64,000 nt of DNA, from positions 46,797 to 110,796 of the forward strand of contig JAWAXF010000002.1 of assembly GCA_038897035.1 (NCBI GenBank), read 5' to 3'. The notes beneath the pieces were generated by a model. That model made no database searches and was not told the origin of the DNA. It worked only from the letters and a program-made list of their open reading frames with translations. A program made the position numbers and the translations under genes. Source of the DNA: Candidatus Bathyarchaeia archaeon (GTDB lineage: Archaea > Thermoproteota > Bathyarchaeia > Bathyarchaeales > DTEX01). Shown one piece after another: positions 28,574-56,607 of this stretch. Each line of letters starts with the position of its first letter. The stretch's first letter is position 1.

Positions 28574-29008
28574 GTGAATTTTATGGGGCATTTAGAGGTT
28601 AGGGGGCGGAGGGAGTTCCTGTTTAGGCTCCCTTATGACTCGGATCTCCTACTGGCATTAAAAGACTTGGCTAAAAAGCTCGATGTGAAGACCGGAGTAT
28701 TCGTTTTGTTGGGGGCACTGAAGAGCGCGACTATACTATATTACATGCAGGAGGAAAAGAAGTATGCAAAGATTTCGCTCGACTTCCCCCTCGAAATAGC
28801 CTCCGGAGTTGGGAATATTGCTATGATGGGTGATGATGTGCTCATACATACGCACGTCGTGCTCTCGGATAGGGATGGGAGGTGCTATGGAGGCCACCTA
28901 TCTGAGGGCTCAAGGGTATTCTCATGTGAAGTCTATTTAAGGGAGCTATCGCCGACAGTGCATAGAAAATACGACGAGCTCACAGGCCTAAACCTCCTTG
29001 ACATATAG
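28574..29008 (+). CDS. PPC (DUF296) domain DNA-binding-type protein
   Basis: The pattern REFLFRLPYDSDLL..L...GVFVLLGALKSATILYY...GNIAMMGDDVLIHTHVVLSD..G.CYGGHL is typical of the PPC/DUF296 fold. Probable ATG start at 28583. Confidence 0.7.
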   Translation: MNFMGHLEVRGRREFLFRLPYDSDLLLALKDLAKKLDVKTGVFVLLGALKSATILYYMQEEKKYAKISLDFPLEIASGVGNIAMMGDDVLIHTHVVLSDRDGRCYGGHLSEGSRVFSCEVYLRELSPTVHRKYDELTGLNLLDI

Positions 29009-29184
29009 GGTCTGCCCACTCGGCTTCTACGGGGCAGCTCAAACCTCAAAGCAAGATAATATATCCTTTGTGGTGGCTAGCCCCATGAGTCTGCCTTCTG
29101 GTGGGAGGGCTATCCCATATGTATATAAAAGCGGCGCTGTAAGGTCCCCTCGGAGTGGCCCCTAAGCGCCCTATCCCCCTCAGG

Positions 29185-29457
29185 CTATGTGACGTATATA
29201 AACTTGGCATCTGCTGGTATGCGAAGCTTACCAATTGACGCTGGCGATAATGGATATACTATATACTTGCCTGAGGGGAGCGAGATGCTTAGTACGAGCG
29301 CAACCCTATACCTAAGCATATACCCATGAGAACAGCCTACGGAGAACCTTTTCCTAGGCAACATATTTTCCACGTATTTCTCTCCACGATAGAAAACCTT
29401 TCTATATTCTGGGCTAGCACACGCAATAATATCAATCTTCATCCCTATATCCCTCAC
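29185..29457 (-). CDS. hypothetical ORF, possibly a decayed gene continuing in another frame (29046-29234)
   Basis: A 90-aa ORF whose 3-prime end overlaps a second 62-aa minus-strand ORF in a different frame. No motif recognised. Confidence 0.2.
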   Translation of the reverse strand: MRDIGMKIDIIACASPEYRKVFYRGEKYVENMLPRKRFSVGCSHGYMLRYRVALVLSISLPSGKYIVYPLSPASIGKLRIPADAKFIYVT

Positions 29458-29839
29458 CCATATTATAGTAGTCCTGCTAACGTGGTCACTTATGGTAAAG
29501 AGCCCAGCAGCCCATCAGCCTATAAAAACAAAGGAAAAAGGATCCAAGTTACCATGAATCATGAATAGCTGAGCGACGAGGTCTAGATCTAAAATGGATA
29601 AAATATAGCAACCATTTCAAGGCTCTCAAACAAGCTCCTCAATATGCTGATGAATATAAGGGCGCCCTTAAGACCTTTAAAGGCGATAACCGGAATAAAG
29701 GGAATCTTTCCAGTCCACAATTTATCAAAGATTAAATTAGGAATAATATATCGAGCAACATTCTAAATATACCCTCTCCTCTCCCCCGCTTGAAGCCATT
29801 TTTTCTTCCAAGATGACTTTTAATGAAATCCTGATTCAA

Positions 29840-29863
29840 TTCTTAATGTACGAAGATTAAGAA
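29840..29863 (-). terminator. perfect 8-bp hairpin just downstream of tRNA-Lys
   Basis: TTCTTAAT (29840-29847) and ATTAAGAA (29856-29863) flank an 8-nt loop, 13 nt past the tRNA 3-prime end. Confidence 0.3.
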
Positions 29864-29875
29864 CTGCTCTCTTTG

Positions 29876-29953
29876 TGGCGGGCCCGGGGGGAGTTGAACC
29901 CCCGACCCCCGGGTTAAAAGCCCGGTGCTCTGTCCTGGCTGAGCTACGGGCCC
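29876..29953 (-). tRNA. tRNA-Lys (anticodon UUU), CCA encoded
   Basis: Hand fold: acceptor GGGCCCG/CGGGCCC, D stem GCTC/GAGC, anticodon stem CCGGG/CCCGG with loop CTTTTAA, T arm GGGGG-TTCAACT-CCCCC. Confidence 0.9.
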
Positions 29954-29968
29954 CAACCTTAATTTGAT

Positions 29969-30002
29969 GAATAAAGCCAGATTTATGGCTTTCTGTTACC
30001 AT
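29969..30002. repeat. 34-nt repeat, copy 1 (29 of 35 aligned positions identical to 30916-30949)
   Basis: GAATAAAGCCAGATTTATGGCTTTCTGTTACCAT versus GAAAGAAGCCCAATTTATGGTTTACTGTTACCAT. On the minus strand, copy 1 lies 16-49 nt upstream of the tRNA-Lys 5-prime end and contains CCATAAAT. Confidence 0.7.
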
Positions 30003-30150
30003 CACTTTCCGCGCATTTTGTGTATGATGATAGAGGAGCGTTTTCAGAGGCGCTTTTGGCGAAAGAAGGCTAATGTAGGGTTCTCTATTACCATTGGGGA
30101 TGGTAACAGATACACCTTTTTCAGCCTTCATTTTCCCAATGGCGCCATTT

Positions 30151-30378
30151 TCAGGCTTCCCCAAAAAGTTTGTATATCCCTTCGCCTTCATCAAGCCGCC
30201 CAATATAGCACCATTTAACCTCTGTAGAAAGAAATAGGCTCGAATAGCTTTGCATTTTGCTCTTTCTATGGGCTTTAACCTCGAACGCTATTATCATATT
30301 ATCCTTAACGGCAAAAACGTCTGGCAGAGGCTTATTCGCCTCCTCAATTGGCTTAAACCGCCATAACTTATAACTGCT
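30151..30378 (-). pseudogene. PD-(D/E)XK nuclease (Hjc-like) gene fragment lacking a start
   Basis: My translation of the open frame gives SSYKLWRFKPIEEANKPLPDVFAVKDNMIIAFEVKAHRKSK...IYKLFGEA*. PDVFAVKDNMIIAFEVKA matches the catalytic D...(E/D)xK strand pair of Holliday-junction-resolvase-type nucleases. There is no N-terminal part and no in-frame ATG upstream of the motif. Confidence 0.35.
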
Positions 30379-30549
30379 TTAAGCAGGCAAAAATTTACGC
30401 TAAAGATTTATGCGCTATGCCAGTAATATCATCATTGCTTAAGAGGATTGTTAGGGAGAGGGAGAACGGGCTTCTCGACTGGGTTCACGCGGTTAAGAGA
30501 CTTAAGAGATAGGGTTTTCCAGGCGCTAAAAAGATCATGAAGTAAGAAA

Positions 30550-30896
30550 ATGGATAGTTTTTCTATCCATCACTTAGAAATAACATTTCACATGAGGTCT
30601 CCCGGTTTTTCTGGCGGTTATGGCGGCGTTATAGGGCGGGGGCATGGATTTCAGATAGAAAAACTGTCCAAAATAGGGGATTAAGTCTTCCCCAAGAGGC
30701 TTCCACGCGGGTTGATGGACAAACTTTTTAGCCATCCTAAAAATGCAGTTAACCTTACGGCCCTAAGGTTAACAAAAAGCGCCCCTCCAGGAGCGGAAAC
30801 GTTAACCCTTTCTTACATAAGGTTAAATAATCCGGGAACCAGCAGACAAAAGTCCACTTATGCCAAATGATGACATAAGTCTTTCCTGAGAATAAA
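30550..30896 (+). repeat. hairpin-rich, inverted-repeat-bounded element, copy A (MITE-like or structured RNA)
   Basis: The left end has the hairpin ATGGATAG-TTTTT-CTATCCAT, followed by ATCACTTAGAAATAAC. The right end is GTCTTTCCTGAGAATAA. Internal hairpins are at 30676-30693, 30748-30773 (10-bp perfect stem GTTAACCTTA) and 30857-30879. The first ~150 nt align with the reverse complement of 43590-43739. Confidence 0.5.
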
Positions 30897-30915
30897 TTTT
30901 AGAGACGTAATCAAA

Positions 30916-30949
30916 GAAAGAAGCCCAATTTATGGTTTACTGTTACCAT
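30916..30949. repeat. 34-nt repeat, copy 2
   Basis: See copy 1. It lies between the YdhR-like gene stop and element A. Confidence 0.7.
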
Positions 30950-31077
30950 GGAGACATAACGGGCCCTCTTTTCTGCCTTAAAAATTCTTGGGTTTTGCTG
31001 TTTTCTTACTTCTCTCGGCACTTTTATTGTGTCCTTGGTAATTGTGTATTACAAAAAGATTGTGGTGCGAATTATGA

Positions 31078-31425
31078 TTATTCTATGGGCCCATGGGTGA
31101 TCTTTGTAGGTTCGCGCAATATCTCGAATATCTTTACTTCAAGGTCGCTTATAGTTGGGTTCTTTTTTAATGCCGAGAATAGCTCTCCCCTAAGATATGT
31201 CTCCACTGAAGCCTCATCTTTAAACAAGTAAATTCCAGAGAGTAGGCTTTCAGATTCATTTATGAGCCAAATCTTCCATAAAAGTCCCTGGACTTCACCA
31301 CCAGGTCTGAATTTTGGAGCGACTTCTAAGATAGATTTTTCAAGCTCAGCCCTTGGTACTTTAAATTTGAACCTCACCTGAAGTACTCTCATTCTAGGCA
31401 CCAAAAAAGTATTTTTAGAGCCCAC
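31078..31425 (-). CDS. YdhR-like putative monooxygenase (dimeric alpha-beta barrel)
   Basis: GLLWKIWLINESESLLSGIYLFKDEASVETYL resembles the YdhR signature (GFLWKVW...GGIYLF.DE.SA.AYL) as I recall it. Confidence 0.65.
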   Translation of the reverse strand: MGSKNTFLVPRMRVLQVRFKFKVPRAELEKSILEVAPKFRPGGEVQGLLWKIWLINESESLLSGIYLFKDEASVETYLRGELFSALKKNPTISDLEVKIFEILREPTKITHGPIE

Positions 31426-40185: not shown

Positions 40186-41085
40186 TTGATGAATTTGCCA
40201 GTAAAGATAATTAAGAGTGAAGATGCTAACTCCCTTCTACTCGAGAGAATTATGTATACTAAGCGTTATATGTTATCTCTCAACAGGGATAGATGTGTTG
40301 GCTGCGAGCTTTGCGAAGTGGCTTGTCCAAAGGAGGCAATTAAAGTTGTTAAGCCATCTGAACTCAAGAACCTTGAGGAACCACCGAAAAAGATAACCGC
40401 GACGGTTCTCGAGGATAAATGCAACTTCTGCGGAATATGTTCCGAAATATGCATCTTCGGGGCCTTTAAGCAGAGCGTAGATGGAAAAGACTTTATCCCA
40501 GTGATTGAGAGTGAGAGTTTCCCAAGGATAATTCACGAAGTTAAGATTGATGAAAGTAAATGTCCGCCTGGATGCAAAATATGTGAAGAGGTCTGTCCAC
40601 TACGCCTAATCCATGTCAAATTTGGTCCCGAGGAGAAGGTTATTAAAGTTGATGTTGATAGCGGGTACTGCCCCGGATGCCGCGTATGTGAGGTTAAATG
40701 CCCATACGATGCAATACATACGAGGAAAATAATTACTGGGACTATAAAGATCAATATAGATTTATGCCCCGAGGGATGCCGCTATTGTGTTGACGCATGT
40801 CCTATACCAGGCGTCTTATCTATCGCCGAAAATGGCAAGGTCAATGTTAATGAGTTATTTTGCATTTACTGTGGAGCGTGCAGAAAAGCTTGCCCAGTTA
40901 ATGGCGCCATAGAGCTTAAAAGAATCTCTATTTATCACGCACCAGTCAAGTCTGGGGCATGGAATAAAGCATTAGAAAGATTAACTTCAACATTAAATAT
41001 GAGTAAAGAGTTACGGAGTAAGTCACTCCTTAAAGCCTATGACTCGGTTAAAAGACTACATATGGGAGGTCGGGCCAAGAGATGA
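40186..41085 (+). CDS. polyferredoxin-like protein with six [4Fe-4S] binding motifs
   Basis: Six CxxCxxCxxxC(P) motifs counted (CVGCELCEVACP, CNFCGICSEIC, CPPGCKICEEVCP, CPGCRVCEVKCP, CPEGCRYCVDACP, CIYCGACRKACP). A 4-nt ATGA overlap joins it to the next gene. Confidence 0.8.
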   Translation: MMNLPVKIIKSEDANSLLLERIMYTKRYMLSLNRDRCVGCELCEVACPKEAIKVVKPSELKNLEEPPKKITATVLEDKCNFCGICSEICIFGAFKQSVDGKDFIPVIESESFPRIIHEVKIDESKCPPGCKICEEVCPLRLIHVKFGPEEKVIKVDVDSGYCPGCRVCEVKCPYDAIHTRKIITGTIKINIDLCPEGCRYCVDACPIPGVLSIAENGKVNVNELFCIYCGACRKACPVNGAIELKRISIYHAPVKSGAWNKALERLTSTLNMSKELRSKSLLKAYDSVKRLHMGGRAKR

Positions 41086-43514
41086 GCATTGAATCAAAGC
41101 AAGAGGATATTAGAATAGGTGTTTTTGTCTGCCACTGCGGCTTAAACATAGCTGGCGTAGTGAATGTTAAGGAAGTGACGGAGTATGCGCGTACGCTGCC
41201 AAACGTGGTCTTCGCTATAGACAACAGGTACACATGTTCAGATCCCGGTCAAGAAGAGATTAAAGAGGCCATAAAAAAGTATAATCTTAACCGCGTTGTC
41301 GTAGCGGCGTGCTCGCCTAGAATGCACGAATTCACTTTCAGGAGAACTATTGCTGAAGTTGGCTTAAACCCCTACCTTCTGGAGATGGCCAACATAAGGG
41401 AGCATTGCTCTTGGGCCCATCCAAGCCACCCGAAAGAGGCAACAGAAAAGGCTAAGGAGCTGATCAAGATGGCCGTCGCTAAGGCTAAGCTGCTAGCACC
41501 GCTGGAGCCAATAAAGGTTCCAGTTACGCCAACAGCGCTTGTTATAGGTGGTGGAATAGCTGGTATGAACGCCGCTCTAGAGCTAGCCGAAATGGGCTTC
41601 AAGGTCTACCTCCTTGAGAAGAAGGAGAGCATAGGCGGACACATGGCTCAGCTGGATAAGACATTCCCAACATTGGATTGCTCGATCTGCATCGAGGGAC
41701 CGAAGATGGTTGACGTGGCCCGCCACCCAAACATCGAGATAATTTCGTTTGTTGATTTAGTGAAGGTTGAGGGCTACATCGGGAACTTCGCAGTGAAGAT
41801 TAGGAAGAACCCACGTTATGTCCTTGAGGATAAGTGTACTGGCTGCGGCGAATGTGTTCCTGTATGTCCCATTGAGTATCCAAACGATTGGGACATGAAT
41901 CTGGGCGTTAGAAAGGCCATATCAGTTCCATTCCCACAGGCCGTTCCACTAGTCTATAGAATAAACCGAGACTATTGCATAGAGTGCTACAAATGCGTTG
42001 ACGCATGTGGCCCGCGCCAGGCGATAGACTTCGATCAGAAGCCAGAGGATATAGAGCTTAAGGTTGGAGCAATAATTGTTGCAGCAGGATATGATATATA
42101 CATCCCTGAAGATGGCAACCTCTACGGATATGGGAAATATGCTAACGTAATAACAAGCTTGGAATTTGAGAGGCTGATTTTAGCCGCCGGGCCAACTGGC
42201 GGGCATGTTGTTAGGGCATCTGATGGCAGGAAACCAAAGAGTGTTGCCTTTATACAATGTGTTGGCTCAAGGGACATTAATAAGTACCCCTACTGCTCAA
42301 ACTTCTGTTGCATGTACACCCTAAAGCATACTGTTCAGTTAAAGGAGCATTATGGGGATGATGTTGATGTTTATGTATTCTATATGGATCTGCGCAGTCA
42401 CTTTAAGGGGTATGAGGAGTTCTATAACAGGGCCAGGGAAATGGGCGTAAACTTCATTAGGGGCAGGGTATCAAGGATAGAGGAGGATCCGAAGACAAAG
42501 AATCTCATAATATACGCTGAGGACACGTTCCTCGGAGAGCCAATAACGCTGGAGGCGGAGATGGTTGTCCTCGCAACTGCAGCAGTTCCAAGTAAAGGCT
42601 CAGATGAACTTGCTAGACTATTAAATATACCAAGGGGAACGGACGGTTTCTTCCTCGAAAGCCACCCGAAGCTTAAGCCGCTGGATACCCCCGTAGATGG
42701 AATTTTCCTAGCAGGGGCCTGTCAGGGGCCGAAGGATATACCCTACAGTGTTGCGCAGGGCTGCGGCGCGGCCGCTAGAGCCGCAACTATACTCTCAAAA
42801 TCTCATGTAACGATCGAGCCGATAGTGGCAGTAGTGGATCCAGATAAGTGCAGGAACACCCAAGTTAAGTGTGGTATATGCGCAATGAAGTGTCCCTATG
42901 GGGCGATTAAAGCCGAACCCGGGAAACCAGCGGTGGTTACGCCTGCCATGTGCCACGGTTGCGGAACATGCGTTGCTGAGTGCCCAACCGATGCTATAAC
43001 TCAAAGGCACTTCACTGACGCACAAATACTAGCTCAGATAGATGCCGCGCTGGAGGAGAACCCCGAGGACAAGATACTGGGCATATGTTGTAACTGGTGC
43101 GCATATGCTGGTGCGGATCTAGCCGGGACGAGCCGCTTCGAGTATCCGCCAAACATAAGGATGATTAGAGTGATGTGTTCTGGGCGCGTTGATAGGGATT
43201 TTGTGCTATATGCCTTAAAGAAGGGCGCCGGGATGGTTCTGATAGGGGCATGCCACCCATACGACTGCCACTATATTGACGGAAACCTGAAGATGAGAGT
43301 GAGGATGGATGCGCTGGCCAAGGCCCTCGAGAAACTTGGCTTAACGCCAGATAGGCTTAGGGTGGAGTACGTCTCAGCGGCGGAGGGCATCAAGTTTGCC
43401 CAGATAGTGAAGGAGATGACCACTAAACTAAAGGAGCTGGGCCGGGAGAGAATAAGAGCCGAGAACGAGAAGCTGCGACCACACCTAGAGCGGATGCTTA
43501 GTAGAAAGAAGTAG
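41082..43514 (+). CDS. hdrA: heterodisulfide reductase subunit A-like flavoprotein fused to an MvhD-type domain
   Basis: HdrA N-domain cysteines (VFVCHCG, AACSPRMHE, EHCSWAH), FAD motif GGGIAGM, and ferredoxin inserts. The C-terminal ILGICCNWCAYAGADLAG...MCSGRVD...GACHPYDCHY is MvhD-like. Confidence 0.85.
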   Translation: MSIESKQEDIRIGVFVCHCGLNIAGVVNVKEVTEYARTLPNVVFAIDNRYTCSDPGQEEIKEAIKKYNLNRVVVAACSPRMHEFTFRRTIAEVGLNPYLLEMANIREHCSWAHPSHPKEATEKAKELIKMAVAKAKLLAPLEPIKVPVTPTALVIGGGIAGMNAALELAEMGFKVYLLEKKESIGGHMAQLDKTFPTLDCSICIEGPKMVDVARHPNIEIISFVDLVKVEGYIGNFAVKIRKNPRYVLEDKCTGCGECVPVCPIEYPNDWDMNLGVRKAISVPFPQAVPLVYRINRDYCIECYKCVDACGPRQAIDFDQKPEDIELKVGAIIVAAGYDIYIPEDGNLYGYGKYANVITSLEFERLILAAGPTGGHVVRASDGRKPKSVAFIQCVGSRDINKYPYCSNFCCMYTLKHTVQLKEHYGDDVDVYVFYMDLRSHFKGYEEFYNRAREMGVNFIRGRVSRIEEDPKTKNLIIYAEDTFLGEPITLEAEMVVLATAAVPSKGSDELARLLNIPRGTDGFFLESHPKLKPLDTPVDGIFLAGACQGPKDIPYSVAQGCGAAARAATILSKSHVTIEPIVAVVDPDKCRNTQVKCGICAMKCPYGAIKAEPGKPAVVTPAMCHGCGTCVAECPTDAITQRHFTDAQILAQIDAALEENPEDKILGICCNWCAYAGADLAGTSRFEYPPNIRMIRVMCSGRVDRDFVLYALKKGAGMVLIGACHPYDCHYIDGNLKMRVRMDALAKALEKLGLTPDRLRVEYVSAAEGIKFAQIVKEMTTKLKELGRERIRAENEKLRPHLERMLSRKK

Positions 43515-43529
43515 CCTGTTGATGCTTTT

Positions 43530-43739
43530 GTATCCACTTAAATAAAGACGATTTTTCTGACCGAAAACTCCTAAAGCCCTTTGGCGAGAAAAATTTTCGC
43601 CAATTTCTTAGACAGTTTTTTCATCCAAGCCAATGGATAGGAACTTGGCGGAAGATAAAAAGATTGGGGGCGCCAAAGGAGAAAACCGGAGCCCTTATGA
43701 ATTTTGTCTTTTCCTGAGGATAGACCATTTTTCTATCCC
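43530..43739 (-). repeat. hairpin-rich, inverted-repeat-bounded element, copy B (inverted relative to copy A)
   Basis: It fills the spacer between convergent hdrA and tal. The reverse complement begins with the hairpin GGGATAG-AAAAATGGT-CTATCC followed by TCAGGAAAAGAC. The other end is GTCTTTATTTAAGTGGATAC. The internal hairpin GGCGA/TCGCC (43583-43601) sits where copy A has GGGGA/TCCCC. Confidence 0.5.
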
Positions 43740-43751
43740 TTGATAAGGCAA

Positions 43752-44666
43752 TTATCTGTGTTCAAAAATCTCCTTGTACTGGGGGATGACATCGGCCATA
43801 AAGTCCCTTATTCCCTCGAGCGTCTTCGGGTGCCTAATCATCTCCCTTAGGACTTCAAATGGCATCGTAACGATGTCCGCGCCCACCTCCGCGACCTCCC
43901 TAACCTGCCTAGCGTTCCTAATGCTTGATGCAATTACCTGCGCTTTAAAACCGTATATCCTGAAGATCCTGACTATTCTTGCGATGAGATCAACGCCACT
44001 AATAATTCCATTATCGTGGATCGTTTGGTCTAACTTTCTTATCTCTTGGCTCTTACAGGCGTCGAGTATGGAGCCACACTTAGCTATTTGCTCGTTAAGT
44101 TTTAGATCCCATATTCTACAGAGTAAACTGTAATCGAAATAATCTTCCTTTTTGTAGTCAACACCGATCTTCATCCCCATCCTCATTCTAATGTAATCGT
44201 CTATTCGGCCCGCGAATGGGCTTACATATTTTGCCCCAGCCTTCGCTGCAAGGATCGCCTGCTCCGGTGTCATGATGAGGGTGCAGTTTACTGGTATCCC
44301 CTCTCTACTCAGCTGTTTTATGGCCCTCAGGCCATCGAAGTCCAGATGGTCACCTTCGCTTAGGCTCGGATTCACGGGTATCTTGATTACAACCTCGCCG
44401 TAAGGGCTAAACTTTTCATAGAGCAGCTTGGCCTGCGCGACCATCTCATCGGCCTTGACAGCGATTACTTCCAAGCTAACCGGCCCGGGAACAGTCTTAA
44501 GAATCTCTTTAATATAGTCTTCCATGGAATTTTTTTCAGCCCTCTTCTCAACAGCCTTCTTAATAAGCGACGGGTTTGTCGTAGCCCCATCTATAATGCC
44601 CCACTCGCAGGCCTGCTTAATCTCATCCAAGTCAGCCGAGTCTATAAAGATCTTCAAGGAAAACAC
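43752..44666 (-). CDS. tal: transaldolase / fructose-6-phosphate aldolase family protein (long form)
   Basis: N-terminal IFIDSADLDEIKQACEWGIIDGATTNPSL and the catalytic-lysine region VVIKIP. At 304 aa it implies insertions relative to the ~220-aa TalC/FSA type. Confidence 0.8.
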   Translation of the reverse strand: MFSLKIFIDSADLDEIKQACEWGIIDGATTNPSLIKKAVEKRAEKNSMEDYIKEILKTVPGPVSLEVIAVKADEMVAQAKLLYEKFSPYGEVVIKIPVNPSLSEGDHLDFDGLRAIKQLSREGIPVNCTLIMTPEQAILAAKAGAKYVSPFAGRIDDYIRMRMGMKIGVDYKKEDYFDYSLLCRIWDLKLNEQIAKCGSILDACKSQEIRKLDQTIHDNGIISGVDLIARIVRIFRIYGFKAQVIASSIRNARQVREVAEVGADIVTMPFEVLREMIRHPKTLEGIRDFMADVIPQYKEIFEHR

Positions 44667-55923: not shown

Positions 55924-56607
55924 CTAAGGTTTAGTGGGCGGTTTTATGATGCTTTTATGATAATTACTGTAAAGTGCGATTACTGGATTATGCCCTAAAA
56001 GTCGATCCTTAACTATTAAAGTCGTTACCGGGGCCTTTGAATGCATTGTAAAGAGGATATCGTGTCCAATGCACAAACCGACAATTATATTTAGATCTGT
56101 TCCAGCATTATTTAATATCAATGCCTGGGCTATTGGGTTGCATGCAGCCTCATATTTGTTTGGATCCCGGATCTTATATTCATTAGGAACAAAAAGTTTT
56201 GTCTTATCAACTGCGCCGCATTTACATCTGACGGAGACTACAGAAAATCCTGACTCCTCAAGAACTTCTACCACCCTTGCTGCTTCGTCATGAAGCCCCG
56301 TGCAGAAAGCTACACCTAGCTTTTTAACATCAATGAGACTACAGAATTCTATAAGCTCCCTTATCCTCGGATACACGGGCATCAACGCTCCCCTAACAAC
56401 TTCATATGCTTTTTTCTCAGTAATTGAGGAGGCCAAGTAAATTCTCTTTATATATTCGTCATTATACATAAGTTGCGCTGACTCTATTATTTGCTCATAA
56501 TTCACTATCGGGCAAAAACTCGGAAGTAATTTTCTATCAATTTCTTCCTTTGGCGAGAATAAGCAATAAGCCTTCTTACACTTTGCACATTGAGGGGGGG
56601 CGCTCAT
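55924..56607 (-). CDS. Cys-rich metal-binding protein (DUF1847-like)
   Basis: N-terminal QCAKCKKAYC...FCP plus later CTG, CKC and CN cysteines. The family assignment is from memory only. Confidence 0.5.
   Translation of the reverse strand: MSAPPQCAKCKKAYCLFSPKEEIDRKLLPSFCPIVNYEQIIESAQLMYNDEYIKRIYLASSITEKKAYEVVRGALMPVYPRIRELIEFCSLIDVKKLGVAFCTGLHDEAARVVEVLEESGFSVVSVRCKCGAVDKTKLFVPNEYKIRDPNKYEAACNPIAQALILNNAGTDLNIIVGLCIGHDILFTMHSKAPVTTLIVKDRLLGHNPVIALYSNYHKSIIKPPTKP

Follow-up and report, generated by a model that had tools for sequence, protein, structure and literature searches.

Genomic context of the element

The DNA analysed here (the window) is a stretch of 64,000 nucleotides on contig JAWAXF010000002.1 from an uncultivated archaeon, and the genomes nearest to it are hot-spring Bathyarchaeia metagenome-assembled genomes. 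Within the window we identified a real, previously undescribed, clade-restricted and non-coding element that is present in two diverged copies, A and B, ~13 kb apart. Copy B is best explained as a non-coding module of ~200-230 nt, consisting of an 18-nt motif (M3) and a longer body. In agreement with the original prediction it lies in a convergent intergenic spacer, and M3 and the body together fill these 237 nt completely (43515-43751; the profile match described below spans 43517-43742). On the plus strand the spacer is preceded by an hdrA-mvhD fusion gene (41082-43514, 810 aa) with Pfam FlpD, Fer4 and FAD/NAD-binding domains, which is the constant upstream neighbour of copy B. The convergent gene on the minus strand encodes a transaldolase (tal, 43752-44657; Pfam TAL_FSA, E=4e-56). 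Two metagenome contigs (JGI 3300025089 Ga0209394_1000186 and ENA ERZ27245617), identical or one base different over the 14.4 kb compared, carry the same hdrA-mvhD call and a 301-aa call for tal. Copy A (~30550-30745) is situated in 1.1 kb that lack credible genes and are flanked by a ydhR-family gene (31078-31425, minus strand) and a tRNA-Lys gene (29876-29953, minus strand). An Rfam scan of the full window at gathering thresholds returned two tRNAs and nothing else, and permissive scans of the A and B regions gave only matches with E>2 to unrelated eukaryotic microRNA and snoRNA models.

Relationship between copies A and B

The original prediction had proposed that the two copies are related in inverted orientation. 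In a pairwise comparison this is not demonstrable, since the similarity is no better than chance. Locally aligned, A and the reverse complement of B give a top score of 24, compared with 18.2 +/- 2.5 for dinucleotide shuffles; this score is reached by 38 of 1000 shuffles, and the wrong-orientation control attains 23. Identity in a guided alignment is 43%, and a repeat finder run on the window did not list the pair. The relatedness is recovered through orthologous spacers. Our comparison set consisted of five related genomes and 80 metagenome loci (L numbers label loci of relatives). A profile hidden Markov model was built from ten orthologous hdrA spacers, with copy A left out, and searched against the window and 88 loci (940 kb). 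It matches copy A on the minus strand, from 30744 to 30551, with E=7.5e-13 and 47.2 bits, colinearly over profile positions 30-234 (~200 nt). There is no further match in the window besides copy A and the B locus, and no extra body copy away from the hdrA locus in ~1 Mb of related loci. Because a profile built without copy A finds it at this level of significance, A and B are homologous copies of one element in opposite orientations. A more general lesson is that a repeat undetectable in pairwise comparison can be recovered via orthologous spacers.

The individual matching segments listed in the original prediction were all found in place, and they coincide with blocks conserved in the orthologous spacers. 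One correspondence has to be abandoned. The outer end of copy B (GTATCCACTT...) had been equated with the left end of copy A; however, this end of B is M3, which the profile alignment places at the other end of the element, and A, whose match starts only at profile position 30, does not have it. The resemblance stems not from colinear homology but from a recurring half-palindrome, TTTTNTATCC, which occurs three times in the window: in M3, in hairpin H1 of B and in H1 of A.

Among the spacers downstream of hdrA genes whose C-terminus is at least about 85% identical, most keep the colinear blocks (L003, L009, L012 and L019 are exceptions). Between the conserved blocks the sequence is scrambled, in genomes where the transaldolase is just 73-82% identical. 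Since the blocks persist while the intervening sequence is scrambled at this protein divergence, the comparison supports the view that purifying selection acts on the element. Copy A, in turn, is best explained as a much older, diverged duplicate of the copy B body downstream of the ydhR-family gene.

Anatomy of the two copies

Read from hdrA, copy B begins with M3 (GTTGATGCTTTTGTATCC, 43518-43535, plus strand), 4 nt past the hdrA stop codon. The family sequence of this 18-mer is GTYGATGCTTTTGTATCC, and its core is invariant in all hdrA spacers with an hdrA C-terminus of at least 79% identity. M3 can be drawn as a 5-bp hairpin, GAUGC-UUUU-GUAUC, with a G.U pair on the plus strand only. It is followed by an H5-like block (AAAGACGATTTTTCTGACCGAA, 43546-43567, profile positions 37-56) with a conserved GGNNA, a T-rich middle and a conserved TNNCC; this block is not a consistent hairpin, and its mean folding energy is the same as that of shuffles. 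H4 (TTGGCGAG-AAAAATT-TTCGCCAA, 43581-43603) is the GGCGA..TCGCC hairpin of the original prediction. Its family form is TTGGCG-N8-11-CGCCAA, and on the plus strand it is succeeded by TTTCTT. H3 (CTTAGACAG-TTTTT-TCATCCAAG, 43607-43629) is a hairpin or palindrome with the family consensus CTTGGAYAT-N5-ATRTCCAAG. Beyond a variable stretch of ~40 nt comes block 4 (GCGCCAA, 43670-43676; TTGGCGC in the tal sense), a conserved block of alignment columns (CGCCAA) and a third copy of the H4 arm sequence. Block 5 (GGAGCCCTTATGAA, 43688-43701; consensus GGAGNCYTCNTGAA, tal-sense TTCANGARGNCTCC) is unpaired and conserved, and is also present in copy A and in L011, L019, L012, L020 and L045. The last part, H1 (GGATAG-ACCATTTTT-CTATCC, 43718-43738), lies 13 nt from the tal stop codon and is a hairpin in some family members only. 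Elsewhere in the window a single other hairpin shares the H4 arms (TTGGCGAGGCAATCCTATCGCCAA, 2794-2817). Two further pairings, one joining block 5 to the bases that follow H4 and the other joining block 4 to the 3' arm of H4, were rejected by eye on account of inconsistent register; block 4 also does not co-vary with H4 in copy A.

Copy A (30551-30744, minus strand) is a diverged, inverted paralogue of the B body with every part of B except M3. Its H1 is a perfect palindrome (ATGGATAG-TTTTT-CTATCCAT, 30550-30570; minimum free energy -10.1 kcal/mol, z -4.2). It is followed by block 5 (CATGAGGTCTCC), a T-run and block 4 (CTGGCGG) within 30591-30617, then by H3 (TTCAGATAG-AAAAA-CTGTCCAAA, 30650-30672) and H4 (GGGGA-TTAAGTCT-TCCCC, 30676-30693). 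Next to copy A, and outside the shared element, there is a GTTAAC-hairpin module (30748-30880, minus strand) whose three hairpins all have a T-run behind them on that strand. Copy B was predicted to lack this module and does so. One of the three hairpins is a perfect GTTAAC palindrome (GTTAACCTTA-N6-TAAGGTTAAC), unique among all sequences compared. In total, the minus strand of 29950-31100 carries five terminator-like sites (a hairpin plus a T-run) compared with 1.6 +/- 1.4 in shuffles; these are H4 and H1 of copy A and the three adjoining hairpins, all on the ydhR-sense strand.

The surroundings of copy A are repetitive in other ways as well. A motif of ~35 nt, ATGGTAAYAGnnAnCCATAAATnnGGCTT, occurs four times around it, at 29966-30002, 30058-30094 and 30913-30949 on the minus strand and at 30100-30130 on the plus strand. 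One of these occurrences is found where the TATA box of tRNA-Lys would be expected, and two others form a palindrome at ~30097. In addition, 22-nt direct repeats at 29980 and 30930 enclose a 950-bp region larger than copy A. The motif may be a promoter- or operator-like repeat, or may represent att-like direct repeats around a 950-bp insert.

Folding, covariation and strand

H4 is the sole segment that is a hairpin throughout the family, with a mean minimum free energy of -10.9 kcal/mol against -3.7 kcal/mol for shuffles. H3 is consistent as well, the corresponding means being -4.4 (hdrA-sense) and -6.2 kcal/mol (tal-sense) against -1.2 kcal/mol. The H4 hairpin of copy A taken alone is no more stable than shuffles (z -1.3 and -1.8), and in L020 and L011 the H4 position holds a different or weak hairpin. 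Folding of single sequences gives z = -2.5 (plus) and -0.7 (minus) for copy B and -2.2 (minus) and -2.6 (plus) for the A region, none of which is decisive.

The G:C to C:G swap that had been noted between the stems of the two copies is real, as is the contrast of GGGGA..TCCCC in A with GGCGA..TCGCC in B, followed by the near-identical tails AAGAGGCTT and AAAGGGCTT. Considering the longer stems, the B-type TTGGCGA..TCGCCAA and TAGGGGA..TCCCCAA of copy A, the swap is a single event, and the next outer pair is broken in A (T-A to A.A). The arms TTGGCG/CGCCAA are invariant in 12 of 12 B-type copies, and because both arms never vary, these copies are uninformative on H4 pairing. The H1 stem varies in both register and sequence (GGAT/ATCC, GGCT/AGCC, GGGA/TCCC).

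The original prediction suggested a formal alignment with structure prediction and a covariation test on more copies. RNAalifold was applied to sets of 5, 10 and 15 sequences, each strand being considered. For ten orthologues it predicts only M3 and H4, both of which are invariant, and for the 15-member family it returns no consensus pairs. The H3 stem has better support than H4, with modest covariation. Three of its pairs are changed on both sides (C-G/U-A, G-C/A-U and U-A/G-C), and 76 of 500 shuffles match the covariation score. On the tal-sense strand 88.8% of the H3 cells pair, a percentage reached in 13 of 500 shuffles. Thus, the proposal that structure rather than sequence is under selection retains its one compensatory pair in H4, but that stem is invariant in 12 copies, covariation is weak and much of the conservation resides in unpaired blocks. 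Structural selection on the element is therefore weakly supported.

The signals for the transcribed strand are mixed. Of the 41 non-Watson-Crick cells in H3, 26 would be G.U on the tal-sense strand and 10 on the hdrA-sense strand. The hdrA-sense strand is favoured by the G.U pair of M3, by extensions of H4 and by the pattern of a hairpin followed by a T-run.

Distribution in relatives

In at least 12 lineages the element occupies the hdrA spacer between a point 4 nt beyond the hdrA stop codon and one 13 nt short of the tal stop codon, even though the gene on the convergent side is not always the same: it may be tal, a DUF2148 gene or another open reading frame (ORF). Copy B is best explained as restricted to one clade of hot-spring Bathyarchaeia and vertically inherited 3' of hdrA; a comparison of copy B with plasmids gave no match. 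The two closest relatives lack the body: L003 retains M3 and the stretch after H4, and L009 retains M3 alone. Since more distant lineages retain it, the body is dispensable. M3 and the body can also be separated. In L019 the two are kept apart by a glycosidase-like gene: M3 remains at the hdrA stop codon and the body remains beside the 3' end of the convergent gene. L012 shows the same split. Two neighbouring arrangements deserve mention. The tal-hdrA spacer of L006 (6904-7430) measures 804 nt and has an extra small membrane-protein-like ORF between tal and the element, and in L011 (6734-10750) the ORF ending at the hdrA stop codon is 1338 aa long, which suggests a fusion with an upstream ferredoxin-like gene or a missed stop codon.

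No A-like copy was found in relatives beside homologues of ydhR or of the PCC-domain gene, because synteny breaks exactly there. In the window (28574-30000) and in L104-L111, the slot 3' of the PCC/DUF296 gene holds different tRNA genes (for Lys in the window, for Thr or Gly in relatives), with unrelated genes beyond them. This slot is a hot spot of recurrent rearrangement or integration.

M3 as a separate motif

M3 is a separate multi-locus motif, distinct from the body. The exact 18-mer is also found, in antisense orientation, 54-312 nt downstream of a thiD-thiN fusion gene, thiDN (L017:2256-2273, L019:611-628 and L020/L022:4319-4336). The distance from this M3 to the one behind hdrA is ~6.5 kb in L017 and L020, in the same orientation, and ~6.3 kb in L019. 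In two other lineages, inverted pairs of M3 flank a gene for a 201-aa tyrosine recombinase that consists of the catalytic domain only (L025, 980-997 plus and 1948-1962 minus; L028, 142-156 plus and 1099-1113 minus). The best NCBIfam match of the recombinase is archaeal XerA, under the family cut-off, and the two proteins are 77% identical. Both genes are also accompanied by a GTAACATTACATATATAATGTTAC palindrome. Judging by this arrangement, the M3-flanked recombinase gene looks like an invertible or mobile cassette. In L045 an identical 22-nt inverted M3 pair (1673-1687 plus, 2256-2270 minus) encloses a block 5-like sequence. Two other observations concern similar sequences: inside the recombinase coding sequence of L025 (1283-1303) there is a perfect H3-like palindrome, GGACAAT-TTT-ATTGTCC, followed by AAG and near-identical in L028 (457-477), and the window itself contains an M3-like sequence on the minus strand (56369-56386; GTTGATGC-CCGT-GTATCC) with three mismatches, all in the loop. 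A comparison of M3 with IMG/VR viral contigs gave four distinct matches, which by a rough estimate is about chance. Read-through of the hdrA stop codon into M3 (VDAFVS) was rejected, as M3 is out of frame in L016.

Possible role of the element

It is tempting to propose, and we do so tentatively, that the element works at the RNA level, at the 3' end of one or both flanking transcripts. H4 and H3, joined by H1 in some lineages, would form adjacent stable hairpins interleaved with U-tracts. Such hairpins and U-tracts could stop or pause the archaeal RNA polymerase, and the same hairpins might protect mRNA 3' ends, those of hdrA on one strand and those of the convergent gene on the other. In other words, the bidirectional terminator or 3' untranslated region (UTR) element named in the original prediction would, on the sequence evidence, be the best guess. 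Transcription through the element, the strand or strands that matter, the role as terminator or stabiliser and a role of the unpaired blocks, possibly in protein binding, are what we infer. The proposal has several points in its favour. They include the position of the element in the spacer of at least 12 lineages with differing partner genes, the stability of H4 and H3 relative to shuffles, the homology of A and B, and the five terminator-like sites around copy A against a background (the first 20 kb of the window) that shows no such excess. H4 with the TTTCTT of copy B scores as terminator-like on the plus (hdrA-sense) strand, although this is a pattern match only. If palindromes are used by both transcripts, wobble-compatible mismatches are expected on both strands, as is seen. 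No Rfam family matches and no reading frame is consistent across relatives. For a promoter there is no room in the spacer.

There are also observations that weigh against a 3'-end role. Termination in archaea needs only oligo-T and requires no hairpin. Hairpin terminators are no general feature of the window, whose first 20 kb show no enrichment of terminator-like sites (10 compared with 16.8 +/- 3.8 expected). The conserved unpaired blocks (GGAGNCYTCNTGAA and CGCCAA) and the invariant 18-mer M3 are not explained by termination. The patchy distribution, with the body missing in the two closest relatives, is likewise unexplained by a 3'-end module, and in L019 the body lies between two co-directional genes, separated from hdrA by the inserted gene. 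The strand signals conflict: the G.U pairs of H3 point to the tal-sense strand (26 versus 10), the H4 extensions and T-runs to the hdrA-sense strand. Finally, covariation is weak, amounting to one swap in H4, an H3 score equalled in 76 of 500 shuffles and an empty RNAalifold result for 15 members.

Another possibility, which we regard as somewhat unlikely but worth serious consideration, is that the element works at the level of DNA. The palindromes would then be sites of recombinase binding or recombination, or the relic of a non-autonomous mobile element (a mosaic resembling miniature inverted-repeat transposable elements, MITEs, or bacterial interspersed mosaic elements, BIMEs), and A and B would mark places where gene order was reshuffled. 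Both copies are indeed at synteny breakpoints, and past the PCC-domain gene relatives have a different tRNA gene and other genes. The inverted M3 pairs around the XerA-like recombinase gene in L025 and L028, the further pair in L045 and the recurrence of M3 at several conserved places in the chromosome, behind hdrA and, in L017, L019 and L020, behind thiDN, fit such a role. So does the half-site shared by M3, H1 and H3 (of the type TGGAYA-N5-TRTCCA), for which there is no reason in independent RNA helices. H3 mismatches occur on either strand, some lineages have the body while others do not, and modules are rearranged in L045, L011, L019 and L012. However, the window contains no recombinase or transposase, copy A lacks M3, and neither terminal inverted repeats nor a target duplication were seen on the body. 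In contrast to active MITEs, the two copies are old (43% identity) and B descends vertically. Direct M3 sites 6 kb apart around core genes, as in L017 and L020, would be dangerous if they recombined. M3 is also unlike archaeal dif with its TAA-N6-8-TTA core (PMC11840125), and the stems of H1 and H4 change between lineages yet stay paired, which fits hairpins better than a fixed protein site. A more specific version, which we consider improbable, is that M3-type palindromes are sites of the minimal tyrosine recombinase and that the spacer element and its inverted copy are docking modules marking boundaries of inversion, excision or exchange; the location of both copies at synteny breakpoints would thereby be explained. 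An invariant 18-mer that flanks a minimal Xer-like recombinase gene and recurs at fixed chromosomal places might point the way to a recombination system with an influence on gene order in these archaea.

An alternative at the RNA level, which on balance we think unlikely, is a small regulatory RNA, either independent or derived from a 3' UTR and read in the tal sense (minus strand at B, plus strand at A). H1, H3 and H4 would serve as its scaffold, and the single-stranded UUCANGARGNCUCC with a U-tract would base-pair with target mRNAs at ribosome-binding regions that contain GGAG. Nearly all members, copy A included, keep the CUCC motif and the T-run after it. The H3 bias described above agrees with this strand: besides the excess of G.U cells (26/41 compared with 10/41) and the 88.8% of cells that pair, four H3 positions pair only there in 14-15 of 15 sequences. 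However, these G.U counts are not independent events because the sequences are related. H1 is closed by a G.U pair on the tal-sense strand in L014, L015, L017 and L018, and in L019 and L012 the body stays beside the 3' end of the minus-strand gene when a gene intervenes before hdrA. On the other hand, inspection of the alignments revealed no conserved promoter-like element upstream of H1, the H4 extensions, together with some of the pairs in H3 and H1, point to the other strand, the H1 loop switches between an A-run and a T-run among members, and the body is lost in close relatives.

The remaining explanations fare considerably worse. That the element has no shared function, the likeness being due to chance or to neutrally decaying duplicates and the conservation among orthologues to recent ancestry, we hold to be very improbable. 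The chance-level pairwise similarity, the 43% identity and the loss of the body in L003 and L009 would be consistent with it; against it stand the profile match (E=7.5e-13, colinear over ~200 nt and the sole extra one in the window) and the discrete blocks kept amid randomised sequence at 73-82% transaldolase identity. Least probable of all, and hardly credible, is a small protein gene made up of tal-sense frames of 35-60 codons across blocks 5 and 4: open stretches sharing the motif F-x-[KR]-[STAP]-P-x-[FL]-x-x-G do exist in copy B (35 codons from ATG), copy A (44 aa), L016 (43 aa), L045 (67 aa, starting with MRSP) and L011, but 1-nt indels break the frame between close relatives (L016 versus L017 and L018), L019 has no start codon, stop positions differ, the similarity is limited to ~10 residues mirroring conserved nucleotides, the nucleotide that varies in block 5 falls on a first codon position and the other strand is just as open.

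Several known classes of element were considered and rejected. A selenocysteine insertion sequence serving hdrA is contradicted by an ORF without in-frame TGA. Inspection of the alignments showed no conserved CUGA after the UGAUGC of M3, as a C/D box small RNA would have, and there is no Rfam snoRNA match near threshold. It also showed no internal loop in the H4 stem and no ACA at the required distance, as expected of an H/ACA small RNA. Neither clustered regularly interspaced short palindromic repeats (CRISPR) nor integron attC sites are indicated, since their defining features were absent on inspection.

The interpretation that we prefer is a 3'-end RNA module. If real, the element would be a clade-specific non-coding one located after hdrA, a central energy-metabolism gene. 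To our knowledge, descriptions of regulatory RNAs or repeat elements are virtually absent for uncultivated hot-spring Bathyarchaeia, and a literature search for Bathyarchaeia non-coding RNAs returned nothing relevant.

Comparison with known systems

The element resembles several known systems without being identical to any. With intrinsic terminators and archaeal oligo-T termination signals it shares a G+C-rich stem (H4) that runs into a T-rich stretch shortly behind the stop codon of a gene read in the same direction, as well as several T4-T6 runs on both strands and, at copy A, an array of hairpin plus T-run units. Unlike this element, terminators are not conserved in sequence at this distance and do not contain the ~60 nt of conserved unpaired blocks seen here.

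Sites of tyrosine recombinases (Xer/dif and FimB/FimE-type) are comparable to M3, H1 and H3 in being short imperfect inverted repeats with an A/T-rich centre, and in L025 and L028 inverted repeats of M3 flank a small Xer-like recombinase gene. Archaeal dif is single-copy, 28 bp long, and has an 11-6-11 geometry with a TAA-N6-8-TTA core (PMC2958812, PMC11840125). M3 and H3 lack this core and geometry and M3 is present at several loci, for which reason we rejected them as dif/Xer sites. Archaeal MITEs are likewise short, non-coding, hairpin-rich, patchy and found at synteny breakpoints. However, A and B are not bordered by terminal inverted repeats or target-site duplications, the copies here are few and highly diverged, and the position after hdrA is orthologous across many lineages.

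A further parallel is provided by bacterial repetitive extragenic palindromic sequences (REPs) and the BIMEs. The differences are of scale and history. A genome with REPs has tens to hundreds of them, similar to one another, and REPs rely on REP-associated tyrosine transposases (RAYTs), whereas here there are two copies in 64 kb, both old (43% identical), with B inherited at a single locus and an archaeon as host. No RAYT/IS200-type gene was noticed in the window and the fetched loci, where no dedicated search was made. In architecture the two are alike: both are non-coding, lie after genes and often between convergent genes, and consist of imperfect palindromes that share sequence, together with short conserved linkers, in modules that are variously arranged. 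REPs and BIMEs are thought to act as stabilisers or terminators of mRNA 3' ends and as protein-binding sites, and we count this, too, among the similarities.

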